Origin: Alphaproteobacteria bacterium | GTDB lineage: Bacteria; Pseudomonadota; Alphaproteobacteria; Rs-D84 | NCBI GenBank assembly: GCA_009782315.1 | Contig: WRJH01000003.1 | Coordinates: 1 to 37,637 of the forward strand | Length of the DNA: 37,637 nt | Direction of reading: 5' to 3' | In this document: positions 343-34,488 of the stretch, piece after piece | Position numbering within the stretch: the first letter of the stretch is position 1 | How the letters are laid out: each line of letters starts with the position of its first letter | Translations under genes and position numbers: made by a program | Notes under the pieces: model-generated | Told to the model about the DNA's origin: nothing | The model's input: the letters and a program-made list of their open reading frames with translations, nothing else | The model's database searches: none

Positions 343-882
343 TTATTTACGTCTGCGAATCCAATGAAAAACATATAAAGCAACGCCTATGCAAATAAAA
401 ATATCGGCGAAATTAAATGCCGGCCAATGATACCCCGCGTAATGAAAGTCCAAAAAGTCTATCACGGCGCCGAATCGTATGCGGTCTACCAGATTTCCAA
501 CGGCGCCGCCGATGATAAGGGCAAGCGATATGCGTTCCAACCGGCCGGGCGCGCGCAAAAGGACATGTCCGAAAAACCCGATGATTGCGGCGGTGATTAC
601 GACGATTGCAACCGGCGCCGCTTCGCCCAATGCACGGAACAAAGAAAACGACGTTCCTGGATTCCAAGTGAAAACAATATTGAAAAAATTGGTCACGCGC
701 GCCATCAGATAGGGATATGGAACCAGATTGAACGCCCGCCCGAACGCCGGCACGGAACCGGTCAAGAGATACAAAATATATCCCTTTGCAATCTGGTCGA
801 CAAGGACCAACACAAGGCATAAGGCACAAGGCATAAGGCATATGCGTTTTGTATTTGCCATAATTTTTTTCAACGACTTCAT
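343..882 (-). CDS. lspA: Lipoprotein signal peptidase II
   Basis: DQIAK, NPGTSFS, GGAVGNLVDR, VIDFLD, WPAFNFAD motifs. Confidence 0.97.
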   Translation of the reverse strand: MKSLKKIMANTKRICLMPCALCLVLVLVDQIAKGYILYLLTGSVPAFGRAFNLVPYPYLMARVTNFFNIVFTWNPGTSFSLFRALGEAAPVAIVVITAAIIGFFGHVLLRAPGRLERISLALIIGGAVGNLVDRIRFGAVIDFLDFHYAGYHWPAFNFADIFICIGVALYVFHWIRRRK

Positions 883-948
883 ACCTTGTCCTTTATGTGC
901 GACATTTCGACAATTTTTTATGCCTTATGCCCTATGCCTTATGCCTTA
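811..948. repeat. Inverted pair of heptamer arrays AAGGCAT / ATGCCTT
   Basis: Arms 811-842 (in lspA N-terminus) and 918-948 (contains tig stop). Confidence 0.92.
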
Positions 949-2207
949 AAAATTTCGTCCGGCTTTACCGTTTTTTCTTTTATCTTTGCCTGCGCGATCA
1001 TGGCGTCCAACGCCTTTTGTTCGAAAAGCATTCCGCGCATCATGGAAACCGCGTTCGGATTTTTGTTATAGAATTCGAAAACCTGCTGCGGGTTCGGATA
1101 TCCCGCCGCCTCTTTCCAGATTGTTTTCTGCAAATCTTCGTTTGTGACTTTGACATCGTTCGCGCTGCCCCATTCCGCCAGAACCAGGCCCAGTTTCACG
1201 CGGCGTTCGGCGTCTTTCATTTCTTTCTTTTCGTCGAATGCGACGCCTTTGCTTGTCGCTTCCCTTTTCGCCATGTCGAATTCCTGGGACACCAAAGTTT
1301 CAGGGATTTCCATTTTCACCTTGTCCGCCAGCATGTCCAAAAGCTCGTTCCGCATTTCGCGGCGCGCGGCGTCTTCGTACTGTTCCGCCAGTATGCGTTT
1401 TATGTGTTCGCGCAAATCGGCGGCGGATTCCCGGCCGACTTCTTTGGCAAAGGCATCGGACAGTTCTGGCAGAATGGATTTCCGAATTTCATGTATTTCG
1501 ATTTCAAACTTTGTCTTTTGCCCGGCCAGATTTGGCGCGTGATAGTCTTTCGGAAATGTGACGTCGATATCAAACTTGTCGCCCGTTTTATGGCCGACGA
1601 TTTTTTCTTCGAATCCGGGTATGAAAGACCCGCTGCCCAGGACCAGGCGATGCTTTTTCGCCTCTCCCCCTTCGAACGGTTCGTTTCCTAAAAACCCTTT
1701 GAAATCAATGACGGTAACGTCGCCGTTTTGGGCCTTGTATCCGGCGTCCTGCATTTCGAACGTCGCGCGGGATTTCCGCAGGTTGTCCAAAGATTTTTCA
1801 ATTTCGCTTTCCGGCACTTCGGCGATTTTTTTCGTAATTGTGAACCCCGACAATTCGATTTTCGGCAGCGCCGGCAGTACGTCGAATTCGATTGAGTACT
1901 CAACATCCTGTCCGCGCGCGAATTTCGTTATATCGGCCTTTGGCGCGCCGGCCAGGCGCAGATTCTTTTCCTTTGCATAGGCATCCATATCCGCGTTCAT
2001 CAGCTTGTCGACGGCGTCGGCATGCGCGGCGTCGCCGTATTTCTGTTGCAGAATATTCATCGGAATTTTGCCCGGACGAAATCCCGGTATTTTCGCCTTT
2101 TCGCCGTATTTGGCCAGTATTTCACAGGCAGATTTCTGTATTTCATCGGCGGTCAGCAAACCCGCGATATGATAATGCAAATCTTTGATTTTTTCTTTCT
2201 TGAACAT
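939..2207 (-). CDS. tig: Trigger factor
   Basis: IPGFRPGKIP ribosome-binding motif; FKBP domain (IDFKG, LGSGSFIPGFEE, VTFPKDYHA). Confidence 0.98.
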   Translation of the reverse strand: MFKKEKIKDLHYHIAGLLTADEIQKSACEILAKYGEKAKIPGFRPGKIPMNILQQKYGDAAHADAVDKLMNADMDAYAKEKNLRLAGAPKADITKFARGQDVEYSIEFDVLPALPKIELSGFTITKKIAEVPESEIEKSLDNLRKSRATFEMQDAGYKAQNGDVTVIDFKGFLGNEPFEGGEAKKHRLVLGSGSFIPGFEEKIVGHKTGDKFDIDVTFPKDYHAPNLAGQKTKFEIEIHEIRKSILPELSDAFAKEVGRESAADLREHIKRILAEQYEDAARREMRNELLDMLADKVKMEIPETLVSQEFDMAKREATSKGVAFDEKKEMKDAERRVKLGLVLAEWGSANDVKVTNEDLQKTIWKEAAGYPNPQQVFEFYNKNPNAVSMMRGMLFEQKALDAMIAQAKIKEKTVKPDEIFKA

Positions 2208-2310
2208 ATAAACGCCCCTTTATTTCAGCCCGCCCATTATAGTGTCAAATTGCCGGATTGCAACTTTTTTATACTTTACACAAGGGGCCCTTTTTCGGTA
2301 CATTATGGAT

Positions 2311-3390
2311 ATGAGAAAACTGCTTGCTCTATGCTCTATGCTCTATGCTCTTGCGCCGCTGGCGGCGCACGCGTCCGAATACCGCGCGGCGATTGTCGCG
2401 GACATGGATACCGGCGCGATATTGTTCCGCGACCGCGACGAAGAATTGAACTATCCGGCCAGCCTTACCAAAATAATGACGCTTTATCTGACGTTCGACG
2501 CGCTGGAAAGCGGGCGCCTGCACCTTTCCGACCAACTGATAGTATCCGCGGCCGCGGCAAATGCGCCGCCTGTGAAACTGGGCCTGGCGGCGGGTTCGAA
2601 AATTTCCGTCGACGACGCGATAAAGGCGGTCGCGGTGCACAGCGCCAACGACGTCGCGCGCGTATTGGCCGAAAATCTGCGCGGCGGGCGCGAGGCTACC
2701 TTTGCATCAATGATGACGGACGTGGCGAACCAAATCGGTCTTTCCCAGACTAATTTTGAAAACGCGTCGGGACTTCCCGACGACGACCATCTGTCGTCCG
2801 CGCGGGATATCGCGCTGCTGGCCATCGCGATTCACCAGCATTTTCCGGGGTATTGGAAATATTTCGGAATACGGAATTGGACATACGGCGGCCGGACTTA
2901 TACGAACGGGAATAAATTGCTGGGCAACTATGCCGGCGCGAATGGCATGAAGACCGGATTTACGAACAGCGCGCGCTATTGCTTGGTCGCAACGGCGGCA
3001 CGCGACGGCAAGAATATTGTGACGGTTGTTTTGGGCGCGCCTAACCGGGATGTCCGTCTGAACGCCTCGCGGAAATTGCTGGACCGCGCTTTCGGAACGG
3101 AAAGCCGGGAATTGAAAATCGAAGACCCGGACGAACAAACCGCTGTGCAAAAACCGAAACCTGTTTCCAGCGGCGGCGGCAAATCGGGGGTACAATTCGG
3201 CGCATTCGGCAGTCGGAACGCCGCAACCGAACAGGCAAAAAAAGTCCAAAAATACACCGGCATTGTACCAAAAATAGAACAGACTGGGGGCATGTTCCGC
3301 GTCCGGGCTTACGGACTATCGGCGACCGCGGCGGACGGGGCGTGCAAAAAATTCCGCGACCAGAAACTGGATTGTTTTATAATCAAATGA
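2311..3390 (+). CDS. D-alanyl-D-alanine carboxypeptidase (peptidase S11) with C-terminal SPOR-like domain
   Basis: PASLTKIMT (SxxK), SAND (SxN), KTG; VQFGAF SPOR-like tail; start placed at MRKLL (2305 also possible). Confidence 0.92.
   Translation: MRKLLALCSMLYALAPLAAHASEYRAAIVADMDTGAILFRDRDEELNYPASLTKIMTLYLTFDALESGRLHLSDQLIVSAAAANAPPVKLGLAAGSKISVDDAIKAVAVHSANDVARVLAENLRGGREATFASMMTDVANQIGLSQTNFENASGLPDDDHLSSARDIALLAIAIHQHFPGYWKYFGIRNWTYGGRTYTNGNKLLGNYAGANGMKTGFTNSARYCLVATAARDGKNIVTVVLGAPNRDVRLNASRKLLDRAFGTESRELKIEDPDEQTAVQKPKPVSSGGGKSGVQFGAFGSRNAATEQAKKVQKYTGIVPKIEQTGGMFRVRAYGLSATAADGACKKFRDQKLDCFIIK
2325..2351. repeat. Heptamer array (TGCTCTA)n within signal peptide
   Basis: About 4 units encoding ALCSMLYAL. 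Confidence 0.9.
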
Positions 3391-3983
3391 ATTCGAAAAT
3401 AGAAAAATTAATCAAACAATTCGCAAAGCTGCCGCGCGTCGGCGGCCGCGCGGGTCAGCGGATTGTCCTGGGGCTTTTACAGGATAAAACCGGAAAATCG
3501 GCCGCCCTTGCGGCCGCATTGATTGATGCGGCGGAAAGCATCAAACCATGCGCGACCTGCGGCTGTTTGACCGAAAACAATCCTTGCGAATTCTGCCTTG
3601 ATGCGGGCCGCGAAAATGGCCAGCTGTGCCTGGTTCGGGATTTGGGCGACGTCTGGACATTGGAAAAATCGGGGGTGTTCCGCGGCCGGTACCATATTGT
3701 CGGCGGACTTTTGTCGGCGGCGACGGGAACGACGCCCGCCGATTTGAATATCGAAAATATCCCTTTGCGAATTGCGGCGGAAAACATTTCCGAAATTATT
3801 TTCGCATTGCCGAATACGGTCGAAGGCAAAACGACCCAGCATTTCATAATTAACAACTTGCAATTATCAATTAACAATTTGCAATTCACTGAATTGGCGT
3901 CGGGCGTGCCGCTGGGCGGCGATTTGGATTATATAGACGACGGCACATTAAATATAGCTTTCGGAAACAGAAAACAGATATGA
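3387..3983 (+). CDS. recR: Recombination mediator RecR
   Basis: HhH LPRVGGRAGQR, CxxC...CxxC zinc finger, TOPRIM, GVPLGGDLDYID; ATGA overlap with upstream stop. Confidence 0.96.
   Translation: MNSKIEKLIKQFAKLPRVGGRAGQRIVLGLLQDKTGKSAALAAALIDAAESIKPCATCGCLTENNPCEFCLDAGRENGQLCLVRDLGDVWTLEKSGVFRGRYHIVGGLLSAATGTTPADLNIENIPLRIAAENISEIIFALPNTVEGKTTQHFIINNLQLSINNLQFTELASGVPLGGDLDYIDDGTLNIAFGNRKQI
3848..3889. repeat. Degenerate heptamer array (AATTNNC)6 in recR
   Basis: aattaac aacttgc aattatc aattaac aatttgc aattcac; encodes INNLQLSINNLQF. Confidence 0.8.
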
Positions 3984-4861
3984 AAAACCCGTCTTTCGAC
4001 TTTCGACTTTCGACTTTCGACTCACTGGCGGCTCTGCCGCCTGTTTCCGAAATGATGCGCGCCGCGGGACTAGAGCCCAAAAAGCAATTCGGCCAGAATT
4101 TTTTATTCGATTTGAATCTGACCGGAAAGATAGCGCGCGCTGTTCCAAATATCGAAAATTCAACCGTTGTCGAAGTGGGACCGGGACCTGGCGGACTTAC
4201 CCGCGCGCTGCTTTTGGACGGCGCCCGCAAAGTCATCGCCATCGAAAAAGATAAAACAACCGCGCCGATTTTGGAACAAATCGCGGCGGCGGATGGGCGG
4301 TTGGAAATCATATTTGCGGACGCGTTGAAATTCGATTTTGCCCGGCTTGGGAAGATTTCCATCTGTTCCAATCTGCCCTATAACGTCGGCACGGAATTAT
4401 TGATTCGCTGGCTGCACGATATGGAAAATATTTCGTCCATGACATTGATGTTTCAACGCGAAGTTGCGGAACGAATTGTTGCCGCGCCCGGCACGGAACA
4501 TTACGGCCGCCTGTCGGTTTTGACATCGCTTTTAGCGGACGCAAAAATATTATTCGATGTTCCGAATACGGCGTTCGTACCCAGGCCGAAAGTTCAATCG
4601 GCGGTTGTCCAAATCATTCCGAAAAATGTAGGGGCGCGCACCCACCCCGCGAAATCTTTGATTTCGCCGGGACCCGGGGGAAACGCGCCCATAGATAAAA
4701 TCGAAAAACTTACTGCGAAACTTTTCGGCCAGCGCAGAAAGATGATTCGCGGAATCCTGCCCGGCGCCCTCTGGGAACAATTCGGGCTTTCAGGCACGGA
4801 AAGGGCCGAAGAATTAACACCTGAAAAATTTGCCGAAATCGCCGCCGCAAATGTGATATAA
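3980..4861 (+). CDS. rsmA: 16S rRNA adenine dimethyltransferase KsgA/RsmA
   Basis: KKQFGQNFL, VEVGPGPGGLT, NLPYNV, MFQREVAERI, FVPRPKVQS. Confidence 0.97.
   Translation: MKNPSFDFRLSTFDSLAALPPVSEMMRAAGLEPKKQFGQNFLFDLNLTGKIARAVPNIENSTVVEVGPGPGGLTRALLLDGARKVIAIEKDKTTAPILEQIAAADGRLEIIFADALKFDFARLGKISICSNLPYNVGTELLIRWLHDMENISSMTLMFQREVAERIVAAPGTEHYGRLSVLTSLLADAKILFDVPNTAFVPRPKVQSAVVQIIPKNVGARTHPAKSLISPGPGGNAPIDKIEKLTAKLFGQRRKMIRGILPGALWEQFGLSGTERAEELTPEKFAEIAAANVI
3994..4021. repeat. Heptamer array (TTTCGAC)4 in rsmA N-terminus
   Basis: Four perfect units encoding FDFRLSTFD. Confidence 0.95.
4628..4690 (+). repeat. GTAG-type REP-like element in frame in rsmA
   Basis: 63 nt, 60/63 identical to the reverse complement of 13161-13223. 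Confidence 0.92.
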
Positions 4862-4882: not shown

Positions 4883-6586
4883 ATGAATCTATCCATCCTT
4901 GTCATATTGGGCGTGGCTTTCGCGCTGGTCTATTTGCTGCGCGTGGCGCATGTCGGAACTTTAATCGCATTCCTGTTCGCCGGAATCGTCGCGGGGCCTT
5001 ACGGCCTGGGGCTTTGGGAATTAACCGACACCTGGTCGTTTCTGGGAGAAATAGGAATTATATTTTTATGGTTCAGTATGGGCCTGGAACTGAACACGCG
5101 GCGATTGTGGCAAATGCGCGATACGATATTCGGATTCGGCGCGGCCCAGGTTCTGGCGGTTGCGGTAATGTTGTTTCCGCTTTTGTTCGGCATTACGCCG
5201 TGGGGGATTTTGCCCGTTATTATGGTGTGCCTTTTGCTTTCCATGTCGTCCAGTTCAAGTGATTTGGATCTGCTTGCGGAACGGAATGAATTACAGACTA
5301 CATTGGGCCGGCAAAGTTTTTCGATTCTGCTGTTCCAGGACCTTTTGGCCATACCGCTTATCGCGATGGTTCCGATTTTCGCCGGGAAACAGTTTAATCT
5401 GGGCGCCGAAGTTATCGATATAACTGTCATGTCCGTCGGCCTTATTATCGGTGTCGTGATTGTCGGCCGGCTGGTTTTGCAACCGCTGATGCGGCACGTG
5501 TCGCGGTTGAAATCCAAAGAAGCGTCGCTGATTGCGATATTCCTGAATATCATCGGCTGGGTCGTGGTTATGGAATTCGTGGGACTGCCGCCGGCAATCG
5601 GCGCGTTCCTTGGCGGTATGTTGATGAGCGAGACGCTGTACAGACATCAAGTCCAATCCGAAATCGCGCCATACCGGATTTTGTTTTTATCGTTCTTTTT
5701 CATTGCGTTGGGCATGGGGTTGAATCTGCCTATGCTGGCCGCGAACTGGTGGCTGGTTGCGGGCGGCGCAATCCTGTTGGTCGGCGTAAAATTCATCGCG
5801 ATATATGCCGTCGCGCGCCTGCGCCGGGTTCATCGCCGCGAAGCGTTCCTGATTGCGCTGATATTGGCCCAGGGCGGCGAATTCGGTCTGTTGATATTGC
5901 AGATGATGCGGCAAAACGGGATAGAGGCGATACCGTTCCAACATTCCGAAATCCTGATGTCCGTCATAGTGGTGTCGATGATTATGACGCCTATATTGCT
6001 TGCCATATACGACCGGCTGTATGAATCTGGCAAACTGGTATCCGGCGCCCGCGCGCGCAAGGTAAATATCGGCGCGACCGAAAAACCCGAAGTGATTATA
6101 TGCGGATTTGGGCGCGTCGGGCAAACGATTGCGAAAATGATGGAATCCCAGAATATCCCGTATGCGGCCATAGACATGAATGTCGACGCGGTTGTTCGCG
6201 GCCGGAACGAAGGCTTTAACGTATTTTACGGCGACACTGCAAAGGCGGCTGTGCTGTCCGAAATCGGCCTGGCGCCGCGTCGGACTCGCGCGGTTGTGAT
6301 TGCGCTTGATAACGCCAGCATTGCGAAAAGCACGGTCCGCGCGGTAAAACAGGCGACGCCGAACGTCCGCATATTCGCCCGCGCAAGAAATCTGGAAGAA
6401 GCGCTGATATTGCAAAGAGAGGGGGCAAAGCTTGCATTGCCTGAAACGATTGAATCGTCGTTCATGCTTGGCGAACAGGTTTTGGAAACCCTTGGCATAA
6501 AACAGGATAAAATAGACATTCTGTTGTCCCGTCTGCGCGGCGACAATTACGCGACTCTTTCGAAAATCCTGGACCGGAATAAATAA
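4883..6586 (+). CDS. Kef-type CPA2 cation/proton antiporter with TrkA-N domain
   Basis: Multi-TM N-terminus, LLFQD, LAQGGEF, ICGFGRVG Rossmann motif. Confidence 0.93.
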   Translation: MNLSILVILGVAFALVYLLRVAHVGTLIAFLFAGIVAGPYGLGLWELTDTWSFLGEIGIIFLWFSMGLELNTRRLWQMRDTIFGFGAAQVLAVAVMLFPLLFGITPWGILPVIMVCLLLSMSSSSSDLDLLAERNELQTTLGRQSFSILLFQDLLAIPLIAMVPIFAGKQFNLGAEVIDITVMSVGLIIGVVIVGRLVLQPLMRHVSRLKSKEASLIAIFLNIIGWVVVMEFVGLPPAIGAFLGGMLMSETLYRHQVQSEIAPYRILFLSFFFIALGMGLNLPMLAANWWLVAGGAILLVGVKFIAIYAVARLRRVHRREAFLIALILAQGGEFGLLILQMMRQNGIEAIPFQHSEILMSVIVVSMIMTPILLAIYDRLYESGKLVSGARARKVNIGATEKPEVIICGFGRVGQTIAKMMESQNIPYAAIDMNVDAVVRGRNEGFNVFYGDTAKAAVLSEIGLAPRRTRAVVIALDNASIAKSTVRAVKQATPNVRIFARARNLEEALILQREGAKLALPETIESSFMLGEQVLETLGIKQDKIDILLSRLRGDNYATLSKILDRNK

Positions 6587-26529: not shown

Positions 26530-28834
26530 ATTGCCGGCATTGCATTGTCGTGCCGCCTTCCTCCGCTTTCCACGAATACCCCGGCGCGCATCTGCAATAT
26601 TGCATTCCTGGAATTGCTCCACCTGTGCCCCCCAACTGTTGATTATTCACAGCATTGCATTCTTCATACGACACACAACTGCCGTTCATTACCATAAATG
26701 AACTGTCGCACTTACACATCGCGTTGACCCAGCCGTTAGACGTACCGTTAGCGCTGATAGCTGTTCCGCCAGTTGCGAATGTCGAATTATCCGGGCACAG
26801 CATGGATTGATAGAATATTTCCGAAATTCCGTTTATGAAAACATTCTGGTCATTTCGGTTTGTTTCCGCCGAAAATACCGCGTATCCGCATGTCAGCGCG
26901 ACATTGCGGCACGCGCCCCGCATAACATTGTACACATGTTCCGCCGACGCGTTGGACGACCATGCGCCGACCTGGCTGACCTGTTGGCTGTAACAGAATG
27001 CTACGTCCTGCATGCACGTTGTCGCAAAATCGGAAATTACGCGGGACTGGGCGGCCTTTATATTAACCATCGCGCGCTGTATGAATGTTTTTACAACCTC
27101 GTTATGAGGATTGAATTTTCCGGACTTGTCATACGTGACGGCACGGCACCGGTCCATAGTCGCACGGCAAAGTCCGCTGGTCGCATCCTGGCTTGTGCCG
27201 ATTTTCTGCAACAGGAAATTGATGATGCATGTGCCGTCGGTCAGTGCGGTTGAAGAGCATTGACCCGGCACGGGCAGCCCCTCTAACGACATGTCCGCCA
27301 TATTGAATCCCGCCGTCATGCCCGTTATATTCGTTATATCCTTGCCCAAAACGACAGTGCCGTTTTCGTCGATATACATTTTCGTCGGGTCTATGCATTT
27401 AACAAAATCGCGGCCGCACACCATGTCGTCGGTCATGCATTTTTCCAGCGCGCCGACGCAACCCTTTGCGTCGTATTGGTTATGGTTCTGCATGACGGCA
27501 AGCCTGGCCTGTTGCAGCATCTGCGTCGCGGCGCGCACATTGGTGCGCAACGTCTGGTTCATCTTTTCCAATCCCTTTTCGTACTGGGTGCAGTCGCGGT
27601 CGATTTCAATTTCGTACCGGGCGGTGATTTGCGACACGTTGACGCCGGACCGCCGGCAAGCGGACAATACGTTTTCACACCGGCCCCTTGCGGCGTTCAA
27701 TAATTGGGTCCCGCGCATATTCGCAAAGGTCCCGCCGCCGGTTCCGAATAGATTACCGATATTGAACATTTCGGCCGGATCGCCCGACAGCGCGAAATCT
27801 ATATTCATATCCAAACCGTATCCGGTCGTGCCGGATGCGGCGACGAACGATTCCGGATTTTTTATCAGCTGTTCGATTTGGTCCAGCATGTTGCGGTTTT
27901 CGGTTGTGTCGCGCGCGCCGGTCAATGCAAGTTCCGCTTCGGTCGCGCTTAATATCGCGCGGATTTCATCGGCGGTAAGGCCGACATAGCGTATACGCTG
28001 GGCGACTTCGTTCAATTCGTTGTTGGCTTCTTTTGTGGCGTTTTCGACGCGGGAATAATTGGACAGCCGGTCGGAACAGCTGCACCGTTTTTGATTCGCG
28101 TCCAGGACGTTGCAGAACTGGTCCATGCATTCCGTGTATTGTTCGTGGCATGCGGCGGTCAAATCGCCCATGGCGGACAGCTTGTCGGTCAGTTCGTTAA
28201 TAGACACGGACGTCACTTGGGTTCCGGCGCGGTCGGTGCGCGTTGCGATGCGGCCGGTGTTGCCGATGTTGGATGTTGTGGGCTGGCCCGTGCCGGCGAC
28301 GTTTCCGCGGCCGCCGACTTCGGCGACGGTGGGCCGCAGAATGATTCCGGCGCGGCGCAAACTGGCCTCTTGATTCACAACGCCTTTGTCGTTTTCATGA
28401 AAAGCCGCGCGTCCCATGGCGCTGCCGGCGCCCTGCGCCTGAACGCCCGCCGCGCGGGATACGGCCGCAGAACGCGCAACAGCCTGCCCCCCGGAACCTT
28501 GGTGAAGGGGGGTGCGCGCAACAACGGGGGCGGAAACCTGGGGTGCGGCGGCCGATTGTTGCGGCACGGCTTGTGATGTTGTTGCTGTGCGTGTTACAAC
28601 GGCATTACGCGATACACCTGGCGCGACCGCCGTTCTCTCCGCTCTATTATCTATGCTCTCTTCTCTATGCTCTATGCTCTGCGGCGCCTGCGCCGCAGCC
28701 TGCGTCACGGTTCTGGAAACCGCCGCGCGACCGTATTGGATTGGTTCATCAGCGTTTGCAATGAAAGCAAGGCACAAAGCCCCGGCTGTTGCCAGGGCCA
28801 CTGTCTTTATGAAAAATCTTCCCTGTGATTTCAT
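26528..28834 (-). CDS. Large exported Cys-rich hypothetical protein (paralog A)
   Basis: Signal peptide, Ala/Arg/Thr-rich N-terminus, CHEQYTECMDQFC...KRCSC, EGF-like Cys tail. Confidence 0.88.
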   Translation of the reverse strand: MKSQGRFFIKTVALATAGALCLAFIANADEPIQYGRAAVSRTVTQAAAQAPQSIEHREESIDNRAERTAVAPGVSRNAVVTRTATTSQAVPQQSAAAPQVSAPVVARTPLHQGSGGQAVARSAAVSRAAGVQAQGAGSAMGRAAFHENDKGVVNQEASLRRAGIILRPTVAEVGGRGNVAGTGQPTTSNIGNTGRIATRTDRAGTQVTSVSINELTDKLSAMGDLTAACHEQYTECMDQFCNVLDANQKRCSCSDRLSNYSRVENATKEANNELNEVAQRIRYVGLTADEIRAILSATEAELALTGARDTTENRNMLDQIEQLIKNPESFVAASGTTGYGLDMNIDFALSGDPAEMFNIGNLFGTGGGTFANMRGTQLLNAARGRCENVLSACRRSGVNVSQITARYEIEIDRDCTQYEKGLEKMNQTLRTNVRAATQMLQQARLAVMQNHNQYDAKGCVGALEKCMTDDMVCGRDFVKCIDPTKMYIDENGTVVLGKDITNITGMTAGFNMADMSLEGLPVPGQCSSTALTDGTCIINFLLQKIGTSQDATSGLCRATMDRCRAVTYDKSGKFNPHNEVVKTFIQRAMVNIKAAQSRVISDFATTCMQDVAFCYSQQVSQVGAWSSNASAEHVYNVMRGACRNVALTCGYAVFSAETNRNDQNVFINGISEIFYQSMLCPDNSTFATGGTAISANGTSNGWVNAMCKCDSSFMVMNGSCVSYEECNAVNNQQLGGTGGAIPGMQYCRCAPGYSWKAEEGGTTMQCRQ
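28483..28512 (-). repeat. CCSCCTTCRC-type palindromic repeat in paralog A
   Basis: Minus strand CCCCCTTCACCAAGGTTCCGGGGGGCAGG; encodes PLHQGSGGQ. Confidence 0.65.
28641..28680. repeat. Heptamer array (GCTCTAT)-like in paralog A
   Basis: Encodes QSIEHREESIDNRA. Confidence 0.85.
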
Positions 28835-28856
28835 ATTAAATCCGAAACCAGTTCAC

Positions 28857-30992
28857 TTATGGCTGTATGCCTTGCGACCCATCCGGCAACACGCCCCAAT
28901 CGCGGATATTGTCCACATTCATCTGTTGCAGACACCATTCGCGGATTTCCTTTGATTTTTTGCCGGTTCCATAAGTCGGCTGACTTATAGTTCCCGTTAC
29001 GCCCGTGCCGTAAAGGATTTCAGACAGCGTCACAACGTTGCGGCAAGTGTTCAGCTTTGGATCCTGGTTGTTGTCGCAAGTTTCGTTGTCAACCTTGTCT
29101 ATGATTGCCGCCACGGACGTATGCGCCGGACTGCAAATCATATCGCGGTAACAGCTGGGGATATTGGACGTCTGCGTGCAGTGCGCTTTGATTCTCGCGG
29201 TCGTCCAATTTTGCGACTGGTACTGCATCTGTTCGTAACAATCCCATATTTCGGTCAGGCATTGCACGAAATTGTTTTTCGCGGCGGTGGAATTCGCGCG
29301 CTGGGCGTTTGTTTCCGTTGTTTCGAATTCAAGGCGTTTCGCTTGCAGCGCCTGCATTGCGGCAATACGCTGGAACGCCATGTTCTGGGTCATCGTTTTC
29401 AATTCTTCGCCGTAAACGTCGCAGTCGGCGTTCGCGTCCAGCGCATACCGGACCAGAACGCTGCGGCGCGCGTCCGCGATGGGCTTGCGCAGATTTTCAA
29501 ACGGGTCGGAATTCGCATTGTATCCGAAACACACGGCCGTGGCGGCTGTGCTGGAACTGTTGGATTTTATGGCGAATGCGTTGTTCACGTCGGTATTGTT
29601 GTTGCTGATTGTGATTTTGCTGTTCAGGTTTCCGGGCGTGTTGCTTTTACAGTCTTCGTATATTCCGTTGAAACAGGAATCCAGAACGCGTCCGCAAACT
29701 TCGTTGTGCGCGAATTGGAACAAATCATATCCCCATGTTTCTGCCAGATTGTCTTTCACCATCGTATCGCCGAATACCGAACTTTCGCCGGGCCGGCGCA
29801 GCCCCAAATCCACGGTAATATTGTACGCGCTGTTGATATTTTTCAACCAGGCGAACATGTCGTTGTCGCGGGTGATTGTGTCGACCAGCTGCATATTGCT
29901 GTTCGCGGTGTTAAGCAGATTGCTGATGGACGAATCCATGCCGTTCAAACTGTTTATCATACCGCCCGGACACATTGTGTTTTCAAAGTTGCGAATAGTG
30001 CCGGCTGTACAGGTAGCAGTGTCGCTTTGCGCTATAAGCGCAACGGTATTGTTATTGCACCATTCTGTTTTCATATTTTCGTTGTCGCTGAAAACAACTT
30101 CGCGGAACGAAACGCAGTTCAGAATTTTTTCCGCATCGGTCAGCGTGAATGCGGCCGATATGTCGCGCCCGCCGGATGCGACGATAAGCGCCAATTCGCC
30201 CGACGCGCGCAATAAATCCTCGCGCGCCTGGTTCAATGTTTTTTCCGCCGAATTGAATGTCAGAACGCGTCCAGCGCACGCACAGCGGCGCTGTCCCGGA
30301 TTGCGCGCGGTGCAGATTTCATCCATGCAGGTGTAATACGCGTCCATACAGTTCGCGTACGCTTCCGCGGATATCAGACCGGTCTGCGGGTCGATGATGT
30401 TCGCGTGGCTGCCCGTCCACATGCGTTGCGACAAAAGGGAATTGGAATTCACCGATGTGCCCGGAACCCGCGAAGTCGCGGATGCGCCCGCAACCATTCC
30501 GACGCGCGCGCTTTGCGGCATAACTCCGGTTCGCGCCGAAACGGCGCGGCTTTGCGTCGATGCGGCGGCGCGACCTGTGACATTACGCGGTGTAACTGTG
30601 GCGGCGCGTGCCGTTGGCGCGGCGTTGCGCGCGGACTGCGTTGTTGTTGTGGCGCGGCTTTGCTGTGCGGTTGTGCCGGCTGTTGCCGGTGTGGCGATGG
30701 CGGCCGGTGCCGCCGCTGTACGCGCGGTTACCGCGCGGGCGCCCAAACCTTCGCGGCCCTGTGCCTGACCGCGGGCGGCGACGCCGCGCGACCCTGCGCC
30801 TGCGCCGCCTGTGCGGCCGGATTGCTGTGCGGCCGCGCTGCGCGGATTATACGTCTGGCTTCCGGCCGCCGCTTGCTGCGCCGCGACCTGGGCCTGGTAT
30901 ACGCCCGCCTCTCCGTATTGAACCTGTGCGTATGCGCTGAATGCAAAAACCGCCGCGCAAATAGCCGCCATAAAAAAATGCGTGAACTTCAT
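28857..30992 (-). CDS. Large exported Cys-rich hypothetical protein (paralog B)
   Basis: Signal peptide ending AYA, low-complexity N-terminus, CMDAYYTCMDEIC...RRCAC. Confidence 0.88.
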   Translation of the reverse strand: MKFTHFFMAAICAAVFAFSAYAQVQYGEAGVYQAQVAAQQAAAGSQTYNPRSAAAQQSGRTGGAGAGSRGVAARGQAQGREGLGARAVTARTAAAPAAIATPATAGTTAQQSRATTTTQSARNAAPTARAATVTPRNVTGRAAASTQSRAVSARTGVMPQSARVGMVAGASATSRVPGTSVNSNSLLSQRMWTGSHANIIDPQTGLISAEAYANCMDAYYTCMDEICTARNPGQRRCACAGRVLTFNSAEKTLNQAREDLLRASGELALIVASGGRDISAAFTLTDAEKILNCVSFREVVFSDNENMKTEWCNNNTVALIAQSDTATCTAGTIRNFENTMCPGGMINSLNGMDSSISNLLNTANSNMQLVDTITRDNDMFAWLKNINSAYNITVDLGLRRPGESSVFGDTMVKDNLAETWGYDLFQFAHNEVCGRVLDSCFNGIYEDCKSNTPGNLNSKITISNNNTDVNNAFAIKSNSSSTAATAVCFGYNANSDPFENLRKPIADARRSVLVRYALDANADCDVYGEELKTMTQNMAFQRIAAMQALQAKRLEFETTETNAQRANSTAAKNNFVQCLTEIWDCYEQMQYQSQNWTTARIKAHCTQTSNIPSCYRDMICSPAHTSVAAIIDKVDNETCDNNQDPKLNTCRNVVTLSEILYGTGVTGTISQPTYGTGKKSKEIREWCLQQMNVDNIRDWGVLPDGSQGIQP

Positions 30993-31058
30993 GGAATATC
31001 CTTTCCTACTAATTCTAATAAATTATATCATTTTTGCGCCATGCAGGTAAAGGGGAAA

Positions 31059-31192
31059 ATAGGGCATAAGGCACAAGGCATAAGGCATATTTTCCTGTTG
31101 TTAATATTTGGATTTTCGATGATAATTTCACCGTTAACCAAAAGGAAAAAATATGAAAAAACTTATGCCTTATGCCTTATGCCTTGTGCCTT
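31059..31192. repeat. Inverted pair AAGGCAT / CTTATGC
   Basis: Arms 31059-31089 (identical to 26170-26200) and 31162-31192 (mliC signal peptide). Confidence 0.93.
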
Positions 31193-31467
31193 TATTTCTT
31201 GGCGCCTGCCGGGAAAAGCCGTTGGAAACCATCGACCTGATGTGCGGCGAAGTCCATGTGGACGCGCGCATTTACCGCGATAGAATCGAAGCGAAAATGT
31301 ACGAACAAGACATAGAAATGAAATTGTCGCAGTCGGCCAGCGGCGCCAGATATGCGGGAAGCACAAACGACACCCGTCTGGTTCTTTGGAACAAAGGCGA
31401 AGAATGGCTGCTTTTGTCCGTCACCGGGAACGAAGAAGAAGTCCTGGTCAGTTGCATGAAACAATAA
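31153..31467 (+). CDS. mliC: MliC-family lysozyme-inhibitor lipoprotein
   Basis: Lipobox LGAC, SASGARY, LWNKG, two Cys. Confidence 0.85.
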   Translation: MKKLMPYALCLVPLFLGACREKPLETIDLMCGEVHVDARIYRDRIEAKMYEQDIEMKLSQSASGARYAGSTNDTRLVLWNKGEEWLLLSVTGNEEEVLVSCMKQ

Positions 31468-31493
31468 AAAACGCCGCGAAAGCGGCGTTTTTT
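31466..31493. terminator. Bidirectional intrinsic terminator
   Basis: AAAAAACGCCGC-GAAA-GCGGCGTTTTTT. Confidence 0.9.
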
Positions 31494-31746
31494 ATTCCGG
31501 CATGACCGATACGGTCGCGCGGTTTCCGGTTCCGCGTTTGAAACGCACGAATCCCGCGATTTTGGAAAATATGGTGTGGTCTTTGCCCATCCCGACGTTC
31601 AGACCGGGGTGAACTTTCGTTCCGCGCTGGCGGATAATGATGTTTCCGGCAATGACGCGTTGTCCGCCGCCCTTTTTGACGCCCAGTCTGCGCCCCGCTG
31701 AATCGCGTCCGTTTGACGATGACCCGCCGCCTTTTTTATGTGCCAT
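31492..31746 (-). CDS. rpmA: 50S ribosomal protein L27
   Basis: [41 protein letters not shown]. Confidence 0.98.
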
Positions 31747-31769
31747 AATTTGCTCCTTTCAGTCGCAAG

Positions 31770-31838
31770 CAGTCGGCAGTCTATAGTCTTCAGTCGTCAG
31801 AATTTTATCTTTCGACTTTCGACTTTCGACTTTCGACT
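31770..31838. repeat. Inverted pair of related arrays (YAGTCNN)4 / (TTTCGAC)4 between rplU and rpmA
   Basis: Arms 31770-31800 and 31810-31837; the second overlaps the rplU stop. Confidence 0.85.
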
Positions 31839-32136
31839 ATCCTTTAATTTCTGTTATTTTCACCACCGTTATATGCTGGCGGTGGCCGCGTGTTCTGCGG
31901 TAATTCTGGCGGCGTTTTTTCTTGAACACCAAAATTTTATCCGCGCGTTTTTGTTCCAATATTTCGCAAACGACTTTCGCGCCTTTGACAATCGGGTCGC
32001 CGACTTTGTCGCCCACCATCAGAACCTGGTCGAATTCGACCTTGCCTTCGGCTTTTAACTTTTCAATCTTGATGGTATCGCCGACTTTTGCGCGATATTG
32101 TTTGCCGCCTGTCTGAAATATAGCATAATTTTCCAT
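31837..32136 (-). CDS. rplU: 50S ribosomal protein L21
   Basis: YAIFQTGGKQYR, VFKKKRRQNYRRTRGHRQ; start at MENY. Confidence 0.97.
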   Translation of the reverse strand: MENYAIFQTGGKQYRAKVGDTIKIEKLKAEGKVEFDQVLMVGDKVGDPIVKGAKVVCEILEQKRADKILVFKKKRRQNYRRTRGHRQHITVVKITEIKG

Positions 32137-32202
32137 ATTTTTTGCCTTTTTGTCTAAAACTTTATGCAATAATGGCATATTTTTCTTGAAAGTCAAGAAA
32201 AA

Positions 32203-32282
32203 AGGTAAGAGGTGTGAAGTAAAAGGTATGAAGTATCCATCGTCCACCTACCTCATACTTCTTACCTCATACCTTTTACCTA
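32203..32282. repeat. Inverted pair ARGTANG / CNTACYT
   Basis: Arms 32203-32236 and 32247-32281, five units each; second arm overlaps the PBP1A stop. Confidence 0.88.
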
Positions 32283-34391
32283 AAACACTCCGCCCACTAC
32301 TGTTTCGCCCGATGCGCCATCTTCATTTGGCGCGCCCCGCGGCGGATTGGGCTTTTGCCCCGGTTTGAACGCTTCCAGAATAATGGTTCCTTCGGGGTCC
32401 TGGCTGGCCGCGATGCCTGTTGCGCGGTTCACACGTATGAGTTCCAGGCCGTCCGGTATGGGGAACGGGCGGTTGCTTTCATTTTGAAGCGCGACTTTCA
32501 TAAAATCGCCGAAAACTTTCGCGGCCATGTATGAACCGGCGCCGGGCCCCAAGGGATGGGGATTGTCGTATCCCAAATAAACGCCGGCGACCAGGTCTTT
32601 GGAAAAACCGACGAACCAGACGTCGCGCACTTCGTTTGTGGTTCCGGTCTTGCCCGCGATGGTGCGTCCGGGCACACGCGCCTGGCGCCCTGTTCCCATT
32701 TCGACCGCGCCCTGCAAAATGGATACTATCTGGTACAGGCTTTGCGGGTCGGCAAGCGCCTCGCCCGGCTCTACCCGTTCCGGCGGCAGCATGCCGGGCG
32801 TCCATTCCATGGACATGTCGCCTGCTGATTCCTGGTTTCTGGTTCCTATGATTTTCCCATGCCTGTCCTGGACATAGTCGACCAGTTTCAAATCATGCCT
32901 GTATCCGCCGTTGATGAACGCGGCATACCCCAGCGCAAGTTTGGCCAAAGTCGTCTCGCCCGACCCCAGCGCCAGCGACAAATTCATGTGCCGCATATTG
33001 TTGTCGTACACGCCGAACCGCTGGGCCGTGGCGACGGCGCGGCGCACGCCGATATCGTCGACCAATCGCACGGTCGGCACGTTCCGGCTGGTTTCCAGCG
33101 AAAGGCGGAAAGGAACGTTGCCCAAAAACTTGCGGTCGTAATTTTCCGGCTTCCATAATTTTTCGTCTTCGCGCCATCCGACGATGGGCGCATCCATCAA
33201 AAGGGTTTGCGGCGTATAGTTCCCGGTTTCCAGCGCCGCCAGATAAACAAAAGGCTTTATTGTCGAACCGACCTGTCGCATGGCCTGGGTCGCGCGGTTG
33301 AACGAAGATTCCGCAAAAGAATCGCCGCCCGACATTGCCAAAACGCGCCCGGTGTGCGGATTTACCACGATGATTGCGCCTTGCAGTCGCTCTTCGCGGC
33401 CCTGGCTGTATGTGTCGATTGCGGATTTCAATGCCGCGGCCGCCGCGCGCTGCAATTCCGGAACGATTGTCGTCTTTACGTACAGTCCGTCGTTGTACAG
33501 CATTTCGCGCCCGATTTTATTCAACAGTTCGCGGCGGACGTCTTCGGCGAAATATTGAAAATCATCCTCCATCTGGGCCATAAATCCGCGGTTGATGTTC
33601 AATGGGTCCGACATAGCTTCCGTCATCTGCTGTTTTGTAATGAACCCTTCATCCATCATGCGGCGCAATACGTAATTGCGGCGTTCGACCGCGCGGTCGC
33701 GGTTGTTCGGCGCCTTGGGCAGCGATGCCAGGAAAGCCATCTGGGACAAAGACAGCTCTGCTACGGGCTTGTTGAAATACATCAAGGACGCGCTGCCCAC
33801 GCCGTACGCGCGCGCGCCCAAAAATATCTGGTTCAGATACAGGGTCATTATATGCTGTTTGGAAAAAGCGCGTTCCAGGCGCAGCGCCAGAATAGCCTCT
33901 TTTGCCTTGCGCGCGATGGTGCGGTCGGATGATAAAAAGAAATTCTTCGCGACCTGTTGGGTTACCGTCGACGCACCTGAAAACCGCGTCGGCCCGCCCA
34001 GTATTTTGATAAGGTTGTTTGTCGCGGCGCGCGCGATTCCGAAAACGTCGATTCCGGCGTGGCGCCAGAAATTCTTGTCTTCGGCGGCGACGAACGCGTT
34101 GACCAGTTGCGGCGGCATGTCTTCGAATTCTATGAACACGCGGCGTTCTTCGGCATATTCGATAAGCAAAGAGCCGTCGGCGGCATAAAGGCGCGTCGCG
34201 ACCGGCGGCGAATACGCGGCCAGTTTTTTATAGTCCGGCAAATCGCGGCCGTATTTCACGACCAGCGCGGTTGCCAGAATGACCAGAACGACGGCGGCCC
34301 AGAACGCGCCGCGCAGCAGCAGAATCGTTGATTTTTTAAGGAAAGATAAAAACGCGCCGAATTTTTTCACCCGAAAAGTATACACCGGCAA
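32280..34391 (-). CDS. mrcA: Class A penicillin-binding protein 1A
   Basis: AAEDKNFWRHAGID, GASTVTQQVAKNF, GSTIKPF, SRN, GKTGTTN; start uncertain. Confidence 0.93.
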   Translation of the reverse strand: MPVYTFRVKKFGAFLSFLKKSTILLLRGAFWAAVVLVILATALVVKYGRDLPDYKKLAAYSPPVATRLYAADGSLLIEYAEERRVFIEFEDMPPQLVNAFVAAEDKNFWRHAGIDVFGIARAATNNLIKILGGPTRFSGASTVTQQVAKNFFLSSDRTIARKAKEAILALRLERAFSKQHIMTLYLNQIFLGARAYGVGSASLMYFNKPVAELSLSQMAFLASLPKAPNNRDRAVERRNYVLRRMMDEGFITKQQMTEAMSDPLNINRGFMAQMEDDFQYFAEDVRRELLNKIGREMLYNDGLYVKTTIVPELQRAAAAALKSAIDTYSQGREERLQGAIIVVNPHTGRVLAMSGGDSFAESSFNRATQAMRQVGSTIKPFVYLAALETGNYTPQTLLMDAPIVGWREDEKLWKPENYDRKFLGNVPFRLSLETSRNVPTVRLVDDIGVRRAVATAQRFGVYDNNMRHMNLSLALGSGETTLAKLALGYAAFINGGYRHDLKLVDYVQDRHGKIIGTRNQESAGDMSMEWTPGMLPPERVEPGEALADPQSLYQIVSILQGAVEMGTGRQARVPGRTIAGKTGTTNEVRDVWFVGFSKDLVAGVYLGYDNPHPLGPGAGSYMAAKVFGDFMKVALQNESNRPFPIPDGLELIRVNRATGIAASQDPEGTIILEAFKPGQKPNPPRGAPNEDGASGETVVGGVF

Positions 34392-34409
34392 AAATCAAAT
34401 AGCAATAAA

Positions 34410-34488
34410 AAGTGACAAGTGACAAGTAATAAGTGATACCGCCGTTCCAGGATTACAAGTATCACTTATCACTTGTCACTTTTCACTT
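34410..34488. repeat. Inverted pair AAGTGAY / NTCACTT
   Basis: Arms 34410-34437 and 34461-34488, four units each, 23-nt spacer, between divergent genes. Confidence 0.9.

Follow-up and report, generated by a model that had tools for sequence, protein, structure and literature searches.

Introduction

Heptamer tandem repeats are over-represented in some bacteria, including cyanobacteria, Xanthomonas and Beggiatoaceae. We know of no agreed mechanism or function for them, and the S23p open reading frames (ORFs) of rRNA intervening sequences (IVS) are equally unexplained. Here we analyse a 37,637-nt contig of an alphaproteobacterium of the order Rs-D84 (assembly GCA_009782315.1, contig WRJH01000003.1; this whole stretch is called the window below), in which arrays of tandem heptamers face each other in inverted pairs, and we follow these pairs through the rest of the genome and its relatives.

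Several described systems resemble them in part, as far as the passages of the cited papers go. The GGGAATC heptamer repeats of Xanthomonas lie genome-wide and mainly outside genes, form 70–75 inverted 'convergent' pairs per genome in one polarity, and usually keep their single or paired type between two species (Rehm et al. 2015, PMC4692102). The TAACTGA heptamer direct repeats of Beggiatoaceae, cyanobacteria and Bacteroidetes comprise 169 direct sets and one inverted pair (MacGregor 2015, PMC4679880). The 23S IVS of Coxiella burnetii is a 428-nt insertion with a 28-bp terminal stem that is cut by RNase III; it carries an S23p ORF and is regarded as a selfish element of unknown mobility (PMC4990558). 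Avd, the accessory protein of diversity-generating retroelements (DGRs), is similar to S23 proteins and binds an RNA stem-loop (bioRxiv 10.1101/2023.10.23.563531). REPINs are doublets of repetitive extragenic palindromic (REP) sequences that form hairpins and are moved by RAYT transposases (PMC3337134). The promoter-bearing Correia elements of Neisseria are cut by RNase III where their ends pair in mRNA, and their inversion has been reported (PMC10969869). The order Rs-D84, which includes Enterousia, is described as consisting of partner-dependent bacteria with genomes of less than 1 Mb (PMC12306168).

The pairs described here have a uniform anatomy and a fixed polarity, belong to multi-copy families, change both arms in concert at orthologous junctions, are gained or lost as whole elements, and are linked to genes of the S23p type. 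The explanation that we put forward, which in our estimate has about an even chance of being right, is that they are the two arms of palindromic hairpin cassettes resembling 23S rRNA IVS, together with gene-less derivatives of such cassettes.

Results

Inverted pairing and fixed polarity

Arrays were called by Tandem Repeats Finder (TRF) in the assembly to which the window belongs (G000; 815 kb, 60 contigs, 88% complete), and the window, which is contig C3 of this assembly, was also checked by direct reading. The genome gave 379 period-7 TRF rows, as against five in a mononucleotide shuffle. After merging, 393 arrays were obtained, of which 326 had at least 70% identity to a 7-nt consensus over at least 20 nt; removal of three homopolymer-like units left 323, compared with about six in shuffled sequence. 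Neighbouring arrays, defined as lying no more than 150 nt apart, form 105 pairs in G000. The two arms are inverted matches in 73 of these pairs and direct matches in three, while 29 pairs are unmatched; many of the latter are inverted with two consensus differences, or place the left half of one family beside the right half of another. Pairs of arrays drawn at random gave inverted matches in 5.9% of cases and direct matches in 5.6%, and neighbouring arms match in 70% of cases versus about 6% for random pairs. A search by local alignment assigned an inverted partner within 200 nt to 188 of the 323 arrays, and the controls gave 6 (direct), 1 (reversed) and 12 (complement only).

A sequence-only reading of the window had proposed ten inverted pairs, each with matched units in opposite orientation, a fixed polarity such as AAGGCAT...ATGCCTT, and spacers of 9 to about 104 nt. 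Both arms are present at nine of the ten places. At the remaining one (31770/31809) the left arm is degenerate, with an inverted-match score of 8.5 compared with 15.5 to 24.5 for the other nine; the same combination of a degenerate left and a perfect right arm recurs at C5:14416–14486. The spacers of the window indeed measure 9 to 103 nt. Matching in opposite orientation holds genome-wide (73 inverted versus 3 direct), and so does the polarity, which is 100% consistent in all 11 families having at least two pairs (AAGGCAT 20/20, AGAGCAT 15/15). Polarity and unit matching are therefore not random across the genome; random polarity and matching were what that reading had named as fatal to its view.

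Two further details of the reading fared less well. The G-richer strand was said to be read on the left arm, which applies to 51 of the 73 pairs; 11 show the opposite and 11 are tied. Reading-frame content is a better description of the polarity. In 49 of the 73 pairs the inward reading contains a stop codon and the outward reading is stop-free, and the reverse is seen in six; the corresponding numbers in the sister species G004 are seven and none of 18. As 7 is coprime to 3, three units suffice to place stops in all three frames. The statement that the spacers are unrelated is untrue genome-wide: the pair at 811–948, spacer included, is 91% identical over 143 nt to C6:19051–19188, and a family of 14 copies has a conserved spacer.

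Arm length and predicted stems

The arms have a median length of 31 nt (about 4.4 units); 193 of the 323 arrays contain four units, and 213 measure 28–35 nt. Perfect period-7 runs number 2–7 per length class at 21–27 nt and show a second mode at 28–33 nt, which is also present in G004. The size mode of 31 nt is thus not a detection artefact. When the two arms of a pair are aligned, 1880 of 2068 positions (91%) are Watson-Crick matches, and in predicted RNA folds at least 20 arm-to-arm base pairs form in 69 of the 73 pairs, the medians being 26 bp and −43.9 kcal/mol. G-runs are lacking in the main units AAGGCAT, AGAGCAT, AAATCAG, AAAGTCG and AATAGGT.

Discrete repeated elements

The pair loci of the AAGGCAT and AGAGCAT families were compared all-vs-all by blastn, each with 300-nt flanks. 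Homology between copies amounts to 75–91% and starts and stops at the outer ends of the arms, the flanks being unrelated. Fourteen AAGGCAT pairs align as an element of about 105 nt, made of four units, a conserved spacer of about 45 nt and four units, or as variants with a longer spacer; the window contributes the pairs at 811–948 (75-nt spacer) and 26169–26275 (46-nt spacer). Element sizes range from about 105 to 150 nt for many pairs. Some pairs, such as 31059/31162, bracket host-specific DNA rather than an element spacer. When the 14 copies were aligned with 25-nt flanks, no target-site duplication could be made out, the junctions being blurred by the repetitive ends. The 45-nt AAGGCAT elements carry a CATAAT a few bases before their own ATG, and three copies of this family either read into a stop codon or lack the ATG (C17:1876, C30:2305 and C8:3716).

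We also observed that C23:5662–5787 and C42:5974–6098 share a 125-nt 5' module that is 99% identical and comprises both arms, the spacer and about 20 nt past the right arm. The encoded proteins have MRLLKYLSTKTKCICLMPYALCLALACASA in common and then continue with different sequence, which suggests either that unrelated genes exchanged the module recently or that strain variants were collapsed.

The pairs in the sister species and in other relatives

G004 belongs to the same genus as G000, and 703 kb of it were compared. It contains 176 arrays, or 168 under a stricter filter of length and period, and 18 inverted neighbour pairs versus one direct; its units are largely different from those of G000. 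The density is 23.9 arrays per 100 kb, compared with 2.1 per 100 kb for the gyrA loci L002–L046. Three copies of AAGGCAT, with up to two mismatches allowed, gave 112 matches in G000, 23 in G004 and 1–6 in five other relatives, and none in 34 of the 41 genomes searched.

Among the 49 syntenic junctions, 23 carry a TRF-detectable array in G004. The other 24 of the 73 G000 pairs could not be placed there: 16 lack a flanking gene or its orthologue, five have flanks on different pieces and three have flanks that are not adjacent. At several junctions the two arms changed together. Both switched from AAGGCAT in G000 to AGAGCAT in G004 at C6:19051, C4:25230 and C3:811, and from AAAAACT to AACAACT at C13:14423; in the pair within the pcrA linker, CAT with ATG became CAC with GTG. 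The neighbouring spacer sequence is often no longer alignable where G004 keeps a pair. Two G004 loci share a spacer specific to G004, whereas their G000 orthologues carry different ones, which indicates that the elements are homogenised within each genome.

At C17:1876, C5:10694 and C31:1728, G004 cleanly lacks the whole element. Two junctions of the window are one-armed in G004. At 31059/31162, G004 has the upstream arm, the orthologous spacer and an ordinary signal peptide, MKKLLTLALPLALLLGAC compared with MKKLMPYALCLVPLFLGAC in G000; the right arm of G000 at 31162 stands in for the hydrophobic core and adds one residue only. At 20933/21066, G004 has the coding arm alone, together with a conventional GC-rich hairpin upstream. 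As a side observation, a conventional GC-rich hairpin occupies two junctions in G004 where G000 has a heptamer hairpin.

The signal peptide of the DUF2147 protein is plain in some relatives and is array-coded by differing units in G000, G029 and G002. Compared with G002, G003 and G006, LspA has 11 additional N-terminal residues in G000 and G004. The pair in the pcrA linker adds no net length in comparison with other relatives.

Some relatives have arrays of other periods. Octamer arrays reach 25.6 per 100 kb in G029 and 21.1 in G023, with four inverted pairs each, and the octamer GAGAATAA surrounds a four-helix gene in G025 (locus L165). Hexamer arrays in the inverted layout occur in G005 (GTGCAA, L156) and G028 (TAGTGC, L157). 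The architecture is accordingly not strictly tied to period 7.

Cassettes that enclose an S23p-type gene

The sequence-only reading had suggested looking for pairs that enclose ORFs. We sought cargo among matched inverted arrays 160–3000 nt apart in G000 and found three pairs, 358–388 nt apart (spans of 428–452 nt), each of which encloses one small gene. All three genes match TIGR02436, 'four helix bundle protein' (E 1e-31 to 9e-18), and a stop codon interrupts one of them. TIGR02436 is the S23p type of 23S rRNA IVS, and the closest solved structure to the cargo is 2RLD (E = 1.3e-31). The 73 close pairs contain no ORF of the TIGR02436 type. The three cargo cassettes lie between protein-coding ORFs and not in a 23S helix; the 23S gene of G000 is barely assembled, so that an additional copy in rRNA is possible. 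A 23S rRNA search of the whole genome gave no match despite the 332-nt end in the window, the rRNA operon being essentially missing from the assembly.

A search for TIGR02436 gave genes, in up to 12 copies, in 15 of 24 same-family relatives, and in none of 16 genomes from other families of the order. Inverted tandem arrays flank 16 of the 20 TIGR02436 loci returned in relatives, versus 12 of 656 genes of G000 overall; the flanking arrays are mostly heptamers with some hexamers and octamers, and the units differ from locus to locus. Across 18 genomes (samples of about 59–815 kb, uncorrected for kinship) the density of arrays correlates with the TIGR02436 copy number (Spearman 0.90). All eight genomes without a copy have 1–6 arrays per 100 kb and no inverted pairs, and all seven genomes with at least two copies have 20–68 arrays per 100 kb and inverted pairs. 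The three genomes with one copy gave 3.9, 6.0 and 27.5 arrays per 100 kb; inverted pairs are absent from G003 and G010 and number nine in G002. In the PcrA tree, array-poor and array-rich genomes are sisters three times: G003 to G000 and G004, G009 with G010 to G006, and G008 to G005.

By eye, the N-terminal peptides encoded in the 45-nt spacers resemble the C-terminal helix of the four-helix protein, as if part of its gene were retained there. This likeness failed a scored test and was rejected as evidence: 26 peptides gave a mean of 21.8 against true C-termini, 22.2 against reversed ones and 19.7 against internal windows, and only four of the 26 beat all controls.

Gene junctions and translated arms

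Gene contexts were taken from an ORF caller made for this analysis. By its calls, 38 pair sides have the stop codon of the neighbouring gene within the arm, and in 33 pairs the spacer contains the start of an ORF; in the smaller families several of these starts belong to over-extended ORFs such as rplU. In the AAGGCAT and AGAGCAT families, 25 of the 35 pairs start an ORF in the spacer. The protein then begins with a K/R-rich N-terminus, continues with array-coded residues of the YALCLMP or YALCSML type, and often has a Cys or an Ala-x-Ala motif after them. The LspA of the window (Pfam PF01252 covers residues 22–174) is a 26th such case among the 35. The arms thus encode the hydrophobic core of a signal peptide or a first membrane helix, as in LspA, the DUF2147 protein and the MliC-like protein of the window; where an orthologue has no array, its signal peptide is ordinary and about as long. 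Divergent genes flank 16 of the 73 pairs.

The window carries tig, a kefC-like gene, mutS, mreB, gyrA, valS, pcrA, the PBP1A gene and rplU-rpmA, as well as a 5S rRNA gene and the terminal 332 nt of a 23S gene; scanned with Rfam and for tRNAs, it gave only the 5S rRNA and the 23S end. Its GyrA shares 84% identity with that of an uncultured alphaproteobacterial metagenome-assembled genome (MAG) and 75–77% with those of 'Candidatus Enterousia' gut MAGs. The metagenome runs that contain window sequence are from termite gut, and no RNA run was found to contain it.

In the first pair, the minus-strand reading of the left arm (811–842, four units of AAGGCAT, TRF) is part of the first membrane segment of LspA (ORF 343–882, identified by reading and Pfam PF01252), the lspA start lies in the spacer, and the right arm (918–948, four units of ATGCCTT, TRF) contains the stop codon of tig (ORF 939–2207, minus strand). 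The second pair consists of a left arm of the ATTTCTG family (6586–6617, TRF), which abuts the stop codon of the kefC-like gene (4883–6586), and an intergenic right arm of the AAATCAG family (6691–6727, TRF). The third has a left arm of the GTGGCTG family (16323–16353, TRF) that lies 18 nt upstream of the gyrA start (16305, minus strand), and a degenerate right arm of CACCAGC/CACGAAC (16387–16411, inverted-match score 15.5). The region of about 1 kb upstream of gyrA (16306–17373), which contains this pair, gave no confident ORF and no Rfam match.

The left arm of the fourth pair (20933–20962, AAGGCAT/AGGGCAT) encodes on the minus strand the hydrophobic core IYALCLMPYAL in the signal peptide of the DUF2147 protein (20500–20976), whose start is in the spacer; the right arm (21066–21103, 5.4 units of ATGCCTT/ATGCCCT, TRF) overlaps the stop codon of the gene at 21101–21841 (minus strand). 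In the fifth pair the left arm (24186–24223, 5.4 units of GTGGCTG), which is conserved in G004, lies at the 5' end of an RNase_T-type exonuclease gene (23497–24192, minus strand), and the right arm (24292–24312, three units of CACCAGC) encodes residues 3–9 of PcrA, the exonuclease gene and pcrA starting divergently here. The sixth pair lies whole and in frame in the linker of PcrA: its left arm (26169–26201, AAGGCAT family) falls at about residues 628–638 and its right arm (26248–26275, ATGCCTT family) is translated as ICPMPYALCPN. The seventh has a non-coding left arm (31059–31089, AAGGCAT family), which is present at the orthologous place in G004, and a right arm (31162–31192, 4.4 units of ATGCCTT) that encodes the hydrophobic core of an MliC-like lipoprotein (31153–31467) whose start is in the spacer.

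The eighth pair combines weak, degenerate AGTCnnn units between rpmA (L27) and rplU (L21) at 31770–31800 with 4.3 perfect units of CTTTCGA at the rplU stop codon (31809–31838, TRF). Upstream of rplU, where the Pfam L21 match starts at residue 41 of the long ORF, stands the left arm of the ninth pair (32205–32235, AAGAGGT/AAAAGGT family); the right arm (32249–32281, ACCTCAT/ACCTCTT) overlaps the stop codon of the PBP1A gene (32280–34391, minus strand). The tenth occupies the divergent junction between PBP1A and the ORF at 34492. Its left arm (34410–34436, AAGTGAC family) lies 18 nt beyond the PBP1A start codon, and its right arm (34460–34489, TATCACT/GTCACTT) contains a promoter-like −35 hexamer and ends 2 nt before the start of the ORF at 34492–34914.

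Solitary arrays occur in frame in permissive parts of proteins, namely in valS, the mutS tail, the gyrA C-terminus and several N-termini. An array of the ATGCTCT type (2325–2351) is translated as ALCSMLYAL near the N-terminus of the ORF at 2242–3390, and 4.3 units of CTTTCGA (3993–4022) lie in the first codons of the ORF at 3980–4861. The array at 9163–9193 falls at about residue 796 of the 842 encoded by mutS, in the C-terminal tail, and two similar arrays (8358–8388 and 8786–8816) are in the ORF at 8003–9061. AGTTGTT units (13586–13620) overlap the 3' end of gyrA; 4.7 units of CGACTTT (18687–18719) inside valS, at about residue 595, are translated as VESRKSKVESR; and an array of the AGAGCAT family (28633–28680), antisense to the orientation of the pair type, is inside the ORF at 26528–28834. 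The others are at 3848–3886, 7984–8014, 11773–11797 and 22737–22767.

Promoter-like hexamer pairs lie inside the spacers of the fourth, fifth and seventh pairs (20933, 24186 and 31059). The promoter-like TTGGAA-17-TATACT at 24251–24288 ends 6 nt before the pcrA start codon, so that the mRNA may be leaderless and begin directly with the CACCAGC array. Within 18000–37000 of the window, promoter-like sites are commoner than in shuffles (34 vs 19.2 ± 4.8) and hairpins like intrinsic terminators are rarer (22 vs 34.7 ± 6.0).

Some ordinary genes are bracketed by matched inverted arrays. These are the gene of ribosomal protein S13 (C5:5700–6077, bracket C5:5630–6219), a 236-residue ORF (C2:25345–26055, bracket C2:25254–26092) and a 97-residue ORF (C6:19188–19481, bracket C6:19051–19655). 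Palindromes of 18 nt, perfect or nearly so and of the type TGTCTATTATAATAGACA or TGTCCAATATATTGGACA, occur one to four times in spacers of the AATAGGT, AAAAGGT and AAAAACT families (C8:22887–23122, C2:30322–30437, C47:5207–5410, C31:2910–3063, C11:5678–5792 and C19:6084–6280) and resemble the operators of a dimeric regulator.

Public contigs break at the arrays. Those of run X1 start or stop inside the arrays at 18687–18719, 21066–21103, 22737–22767, 26169–26201 and 31809–31838, neighbouring contigs overlap by about 27–29 nt, and some joints connect arms of different loci (for example 20962 to 31163). Joints that skip exactly one spacer (20963 to 21074 and 31090 to 31164) have sides of only 27–28 nt and are uninformative because other copies of the same element could produce them. 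Contigs of two other runs span the pair at 26169–26275 (X2 record 14) and the pair at 32205–32281 (X2 record 16, X3 record 23) and are identical to the window. No inversion of a spacer was seen among the assembled contigs. In practice, gene callers and assemblers will mis-handle such junctions, as our own ORF caller did.

Mobility and processing factors

A search for Y1_Tnp (PF01797, the RAYT type) gave no match in five genomes, the control search being positive in 6 of 14 known genomes and G000 being 88% complete. DDE_Tnp_1, rve and the TnpB zinc-ribbon domain likewise each gave no match in the five genomes. RVT_1 was not found in the array-rich genomes searched (G000, G004 and G002); the only RVT_1 match among the five genomes is at C2:200350–200787 of the array-poor G003. 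RNase III (rnc) was found in four of the five genomes searched (G004, G002, G006 and G009).

Discussion

A proposed hairpin cassette at gene junctions

The anatomy of the pairs suggests a possible mode of action. A single DNA or RNA strand of the cassette would fold back on itself, with about 26 bp of stem enclosing a loop, and three kinds of loop may be distinguished: loops of 8 to 17 nt; loops of 45 to 100 nt with a promoter-like sequence, a start codon and charged N-terminal residues; and loops of about 370 nt with an S23p/TIGR02436 gene. The cassettes fit gene junctions so tightly that their arms overlap coding ends. The inward reading of an arm mostly contains stops in all three frames, often including the stop codon of the neighbour, and the outward reading, usually stop-free, is often translated as a hydrophobic core. 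By analogy with IVS and Correia elements, a read-through transcript might fold into the stem and meet a barrier there, or become a substrate of RNase III. A cut in the stem would sever the upstream message from the start of the enclosed gene, and the downstream gene could then be expressed from the promoter-like sequence of the loop, on an mRNA in which only one of the two arms is present, the outward, translatable one. The scarcity of terminator-like sites fits this picture, if loosely. As none of the five transposase and reverse transcriptase families tried was found in the array-rich genomes, we infer that recombination or template switching between the arms, each about 30 nt long, and not a transposase, spreads the elements and keeps their arms matched, possibly with the S23p-like protein as a participant.

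Several observations weigh against this explanation. The RNA stem, the cut and the transcript ends are only predicted for this organism. Should the loop promoters be real, many mRNAs would have only one arm and could not form the stem. A test for selection at the RNA level, made on the sense strand of 45 pairs in tandem context, gave 26 G-U and 17 A-C positions, which is not significant, and RNase III was not found in G000, which is 88% complete. None of the five transposase and reverse transcriptase families tried, which might have accounted for the spread, was found in the array-rich genomes. Partnerless arrays, 135 of 323 by local alignment, are numerous, and many lie inside genes such as valS and mutS, where a pure stem model does not explain them. 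On the side of the S23p gene, four of the 20 loci lack flanking arrays, G002 is array-rich with only one copy, and the link is correlative: kin are not independent, the sister contrasts number three, and the copy numbers come from incomplete assemblies. Descent of the cargo-free elements from cargo-bearing ones, for which the spacer peptides were scored, is not supported. The gene contexts, finally, depend on a crude ORF caller that missed lspA and over-extended rplU.

Alternative explanations

The pairs might instead be a mutational by-product without function, in which one array arises first, template switching (quasi-palindrome correction) adds the second arm, gene conversion homogenises the arms of about 30 nt, and arrays survive only where they are tolerated, in intergenic DNA, signal-peptide cores, linkers and protein tails. 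This is near the second model of the sequence-only reading, and several observations agree with it: G004 has single arms where G000 is paired (31059/31162, with an orthologous spacer, and 20933/21066), the arm at 31162 swaps a hydrophobic core at the cost of one residue, the pcrA linker pair is length-neutral, the signal peptide of the DUF2147 protein is array-coded by different unit families in three genomes, arrays sit in permissive parts of essential proteins, no transposase was found among the families tried, and the G-U excess is not significant. It leaves unexplained the sharp 31-nt size mode across unrelated units, the clean presence or absence of whole elements of 76–105 nt, the conserved spacers borne by the elements, the pairs kept at orthologous junctions where the adjoining intergenic sequence no longer aligns, and the tight association with TIGR02436. 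We consider it unlikely, though it deserves serious attention. A transposon origin would be in line with the sharp-ended multi-copy families, the terminal inverted repeats and the presence/absence polymorphism, and two inverted arms with a spacer fit the definition of a REPIN as given in PMC3337134. Non-autonomous elements of the MITE (miniature inverted-repeat transposable element) or REPIN type would be moved in trans by a resident transposase, yet Y1_Tnp, DDE_Tnp_1, rve and the TnpB zinc ribbon were not found in G000, G004 and G002, and the one RVT_1 match is in G003, which is array-poor. The 14-copy alignment shows no evident target-site duplication, tandem heptamers and not short palindromes make up the arms, and copies that are 75–91% alike are not recent. 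We regard this account as very improbable.

A unit of seven nucleotides, not a multiple of three, in or before coding regions also recalls contingency loci, in which gain or loss of units in the coding arm would switch secreted or surface proteins on and off while the upstream arm modulates expression. Pentamer repeats in the signal-peptide region of Neisseria opa genes are a precedent for such on/off switching, and heptanucleotide repeats are described as driving hmw phase variation in Haemophilus. At least 25 predicted secreted proteins or lipoproteins with an array in the part of the gene that encodes the signal peptide, and the three 45-nt-family copies noted above that hit a stop codon or have lost the ATG, would agree with this. 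The coding arrays, however, also lie in the essential single-copy genes lspA, pcrA (N-terminus and linker), valS, mutS and gyrA, where frame switching would be lethal; array length is held tightly near 31 nt, the three bridging contigs from two other runs show no difference, and pairs persist at orthologous sites between species. We therefore give switching very little probability. The same low estimate applies to the view that the arrays are iterated sites for a DNA- or RNA-binding protein, or sites of non-B DNA such as was proposed for the Xanthomonas heptamers, whose inverted layout lets one motif serve two outward-facing genes. Its attractions are the four-unit preference common to the Xanthomonas repeats (PMC4692102) and the divergent junctions, at which both mRNAs would start with the same unit, as with CACCAGC at pcrA and its neighbour. 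Dozens of unrelated units, however, cannot serve one sequence-specific protein, units without G-runs do not form a G-quadruplex, only 16 of the 73 pairs are between divergent genes, and the matching of neighbouring arms (70% versus about 6%) goes beyond such a role.

The two models of the sequence-only reading are each partly supported, and neither fits as stated. The first, in which the pairs are the termini of cassettes whose cargo was lost, is in line with the existence of cargo-bearing cassettes (the three G000 pairs and 16 of 20 loci in relatives), but the test for a gene remnant in the 45-nt spacers was negative. The second, in which one arm is copied into nearby host DNA, agrees with the one-armed state of two window junctions in G004, where an arm may have been gained in G000 or lost in G004, but many pairs are whole copies of discrete elements. 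Both have to accommodate that these copies include the spacer and that whole elements are cleanly present or absent with respect to G004.

Beyond the hairpin cassette itself, a wider proposal can be made, which we regard as doubtful and offer tentatively. S23p/Avd-like proteins would be the trans-acting partner of a self-propagating hairpin cassette; its gene-bearing form in 23S rRNA would be the IVS, and its gene-less derivatives would seed arrays that the host recruits as stops, starts and signal-peptide cores. If this is true, a partnership of S23p and cassette could underlie the unexplained heptamer repeats of other phyla.

Comparison with known systems

G000 and its relatives tie heptamer repeats to S23p-type ORFs both physically and quantitatively. 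These genomes are smaller than 1 Mb, so that all junctions are open to inspection, and both puzzles become testable because some sister species have the system and others lack it. The repeat element supplies stop codons, start codons, signal-peptide cores and even the first membrane helix of LspA, so that selfish or structural DNA is written into proteins.

Parts of this picture are already known, namely inverted heptamer-array pairs with a four-unit preference and a fixed polarity from Xanthomonas, translated palindromes from Rickettsia, and promoter-bearing elements cut by RNase III from Neisseria. The open-access literature searched contained no paper linking heptamer arrays to four-helix-bundle genes or to signal-peptide coding. 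Not found either, in that literature or in the papers cited here, were the many unit families in one architecture, arms that provide stop codons and signal-peptide cores, the concerted switching of arms at orthologous junctions, and the physical and quantitative link to an S23p-type gene outside rRNA.

The Xanthomonas repeats share with ours the tandem 7-nt units, the mode of about four units and the opposite-strand neighbours in one polarity. They consist of one G-rich unit read as quadruplex-forming, whereas dozens of units without G-runs are used here, the arms overlap coding ends and are translated, and discrete multi-copy elements own their spacers; a link to an S23p-like gene, as seen here, is not reported in the passages of PMC4692102. 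The TAACTGA repeats are similar in being abundant 7-nt tandems (2–6 copies there) that stand only a few nucleotides from start codons, some of which overlap gene ends or are translated, and differ in having a single unit; the text of PMC4679880 makes no mention of four-helix-bundle or IVS genes.

REPINs resemble the present elements in having two inverted repeats around a spacer, a size of about 100 nt, hundreds of intergenic copies and long persistence in a lineage. They are unlike them in that no RAYT (Y1_Tnp) was found in the five genomes and in that the arms here are tandem heptamers, partly coding, in place of the imperfect palindromes described for REPINs. Correia elements are likewise small, have terminal inverted repeats and lie just upstream of genes (PMC10969869). 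Their ends are fixed and non-repetitive and they are transposon-like, whereas neither an evident target duplication nor a transposase of the families tried was found here.

The Rickettsia palindromic elements, likened here by description and not by sequence, are of about 100–150 bp, occur in a reduced alphaproteobacterial genome and lie in frame inside unrelated genes (PMC10969869). The same is seen in G000 in the linker and N-terminus of pcrA, in LspA, in valS and in the mutS tail. No heptamer periodicity is reported for the Rickettsia elements in the passages concerned, and signal-peptide cores, N-termini and linkers are the preferred places here.

The Coxiella IVS differs from the cassettes of G000 in that these lie between protein-coding genes, have stems of tandem heptamers and mostly lack an ORF, and their excision is hypothetical. 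It agrees with them in design: the three cargo cassettes of G000 span 428–452 nt, the inverted repeats of the pairs form a predicted stem with a median of 26 bp, and an S23p-type ORF, in these three pairs only, occupies the loop.

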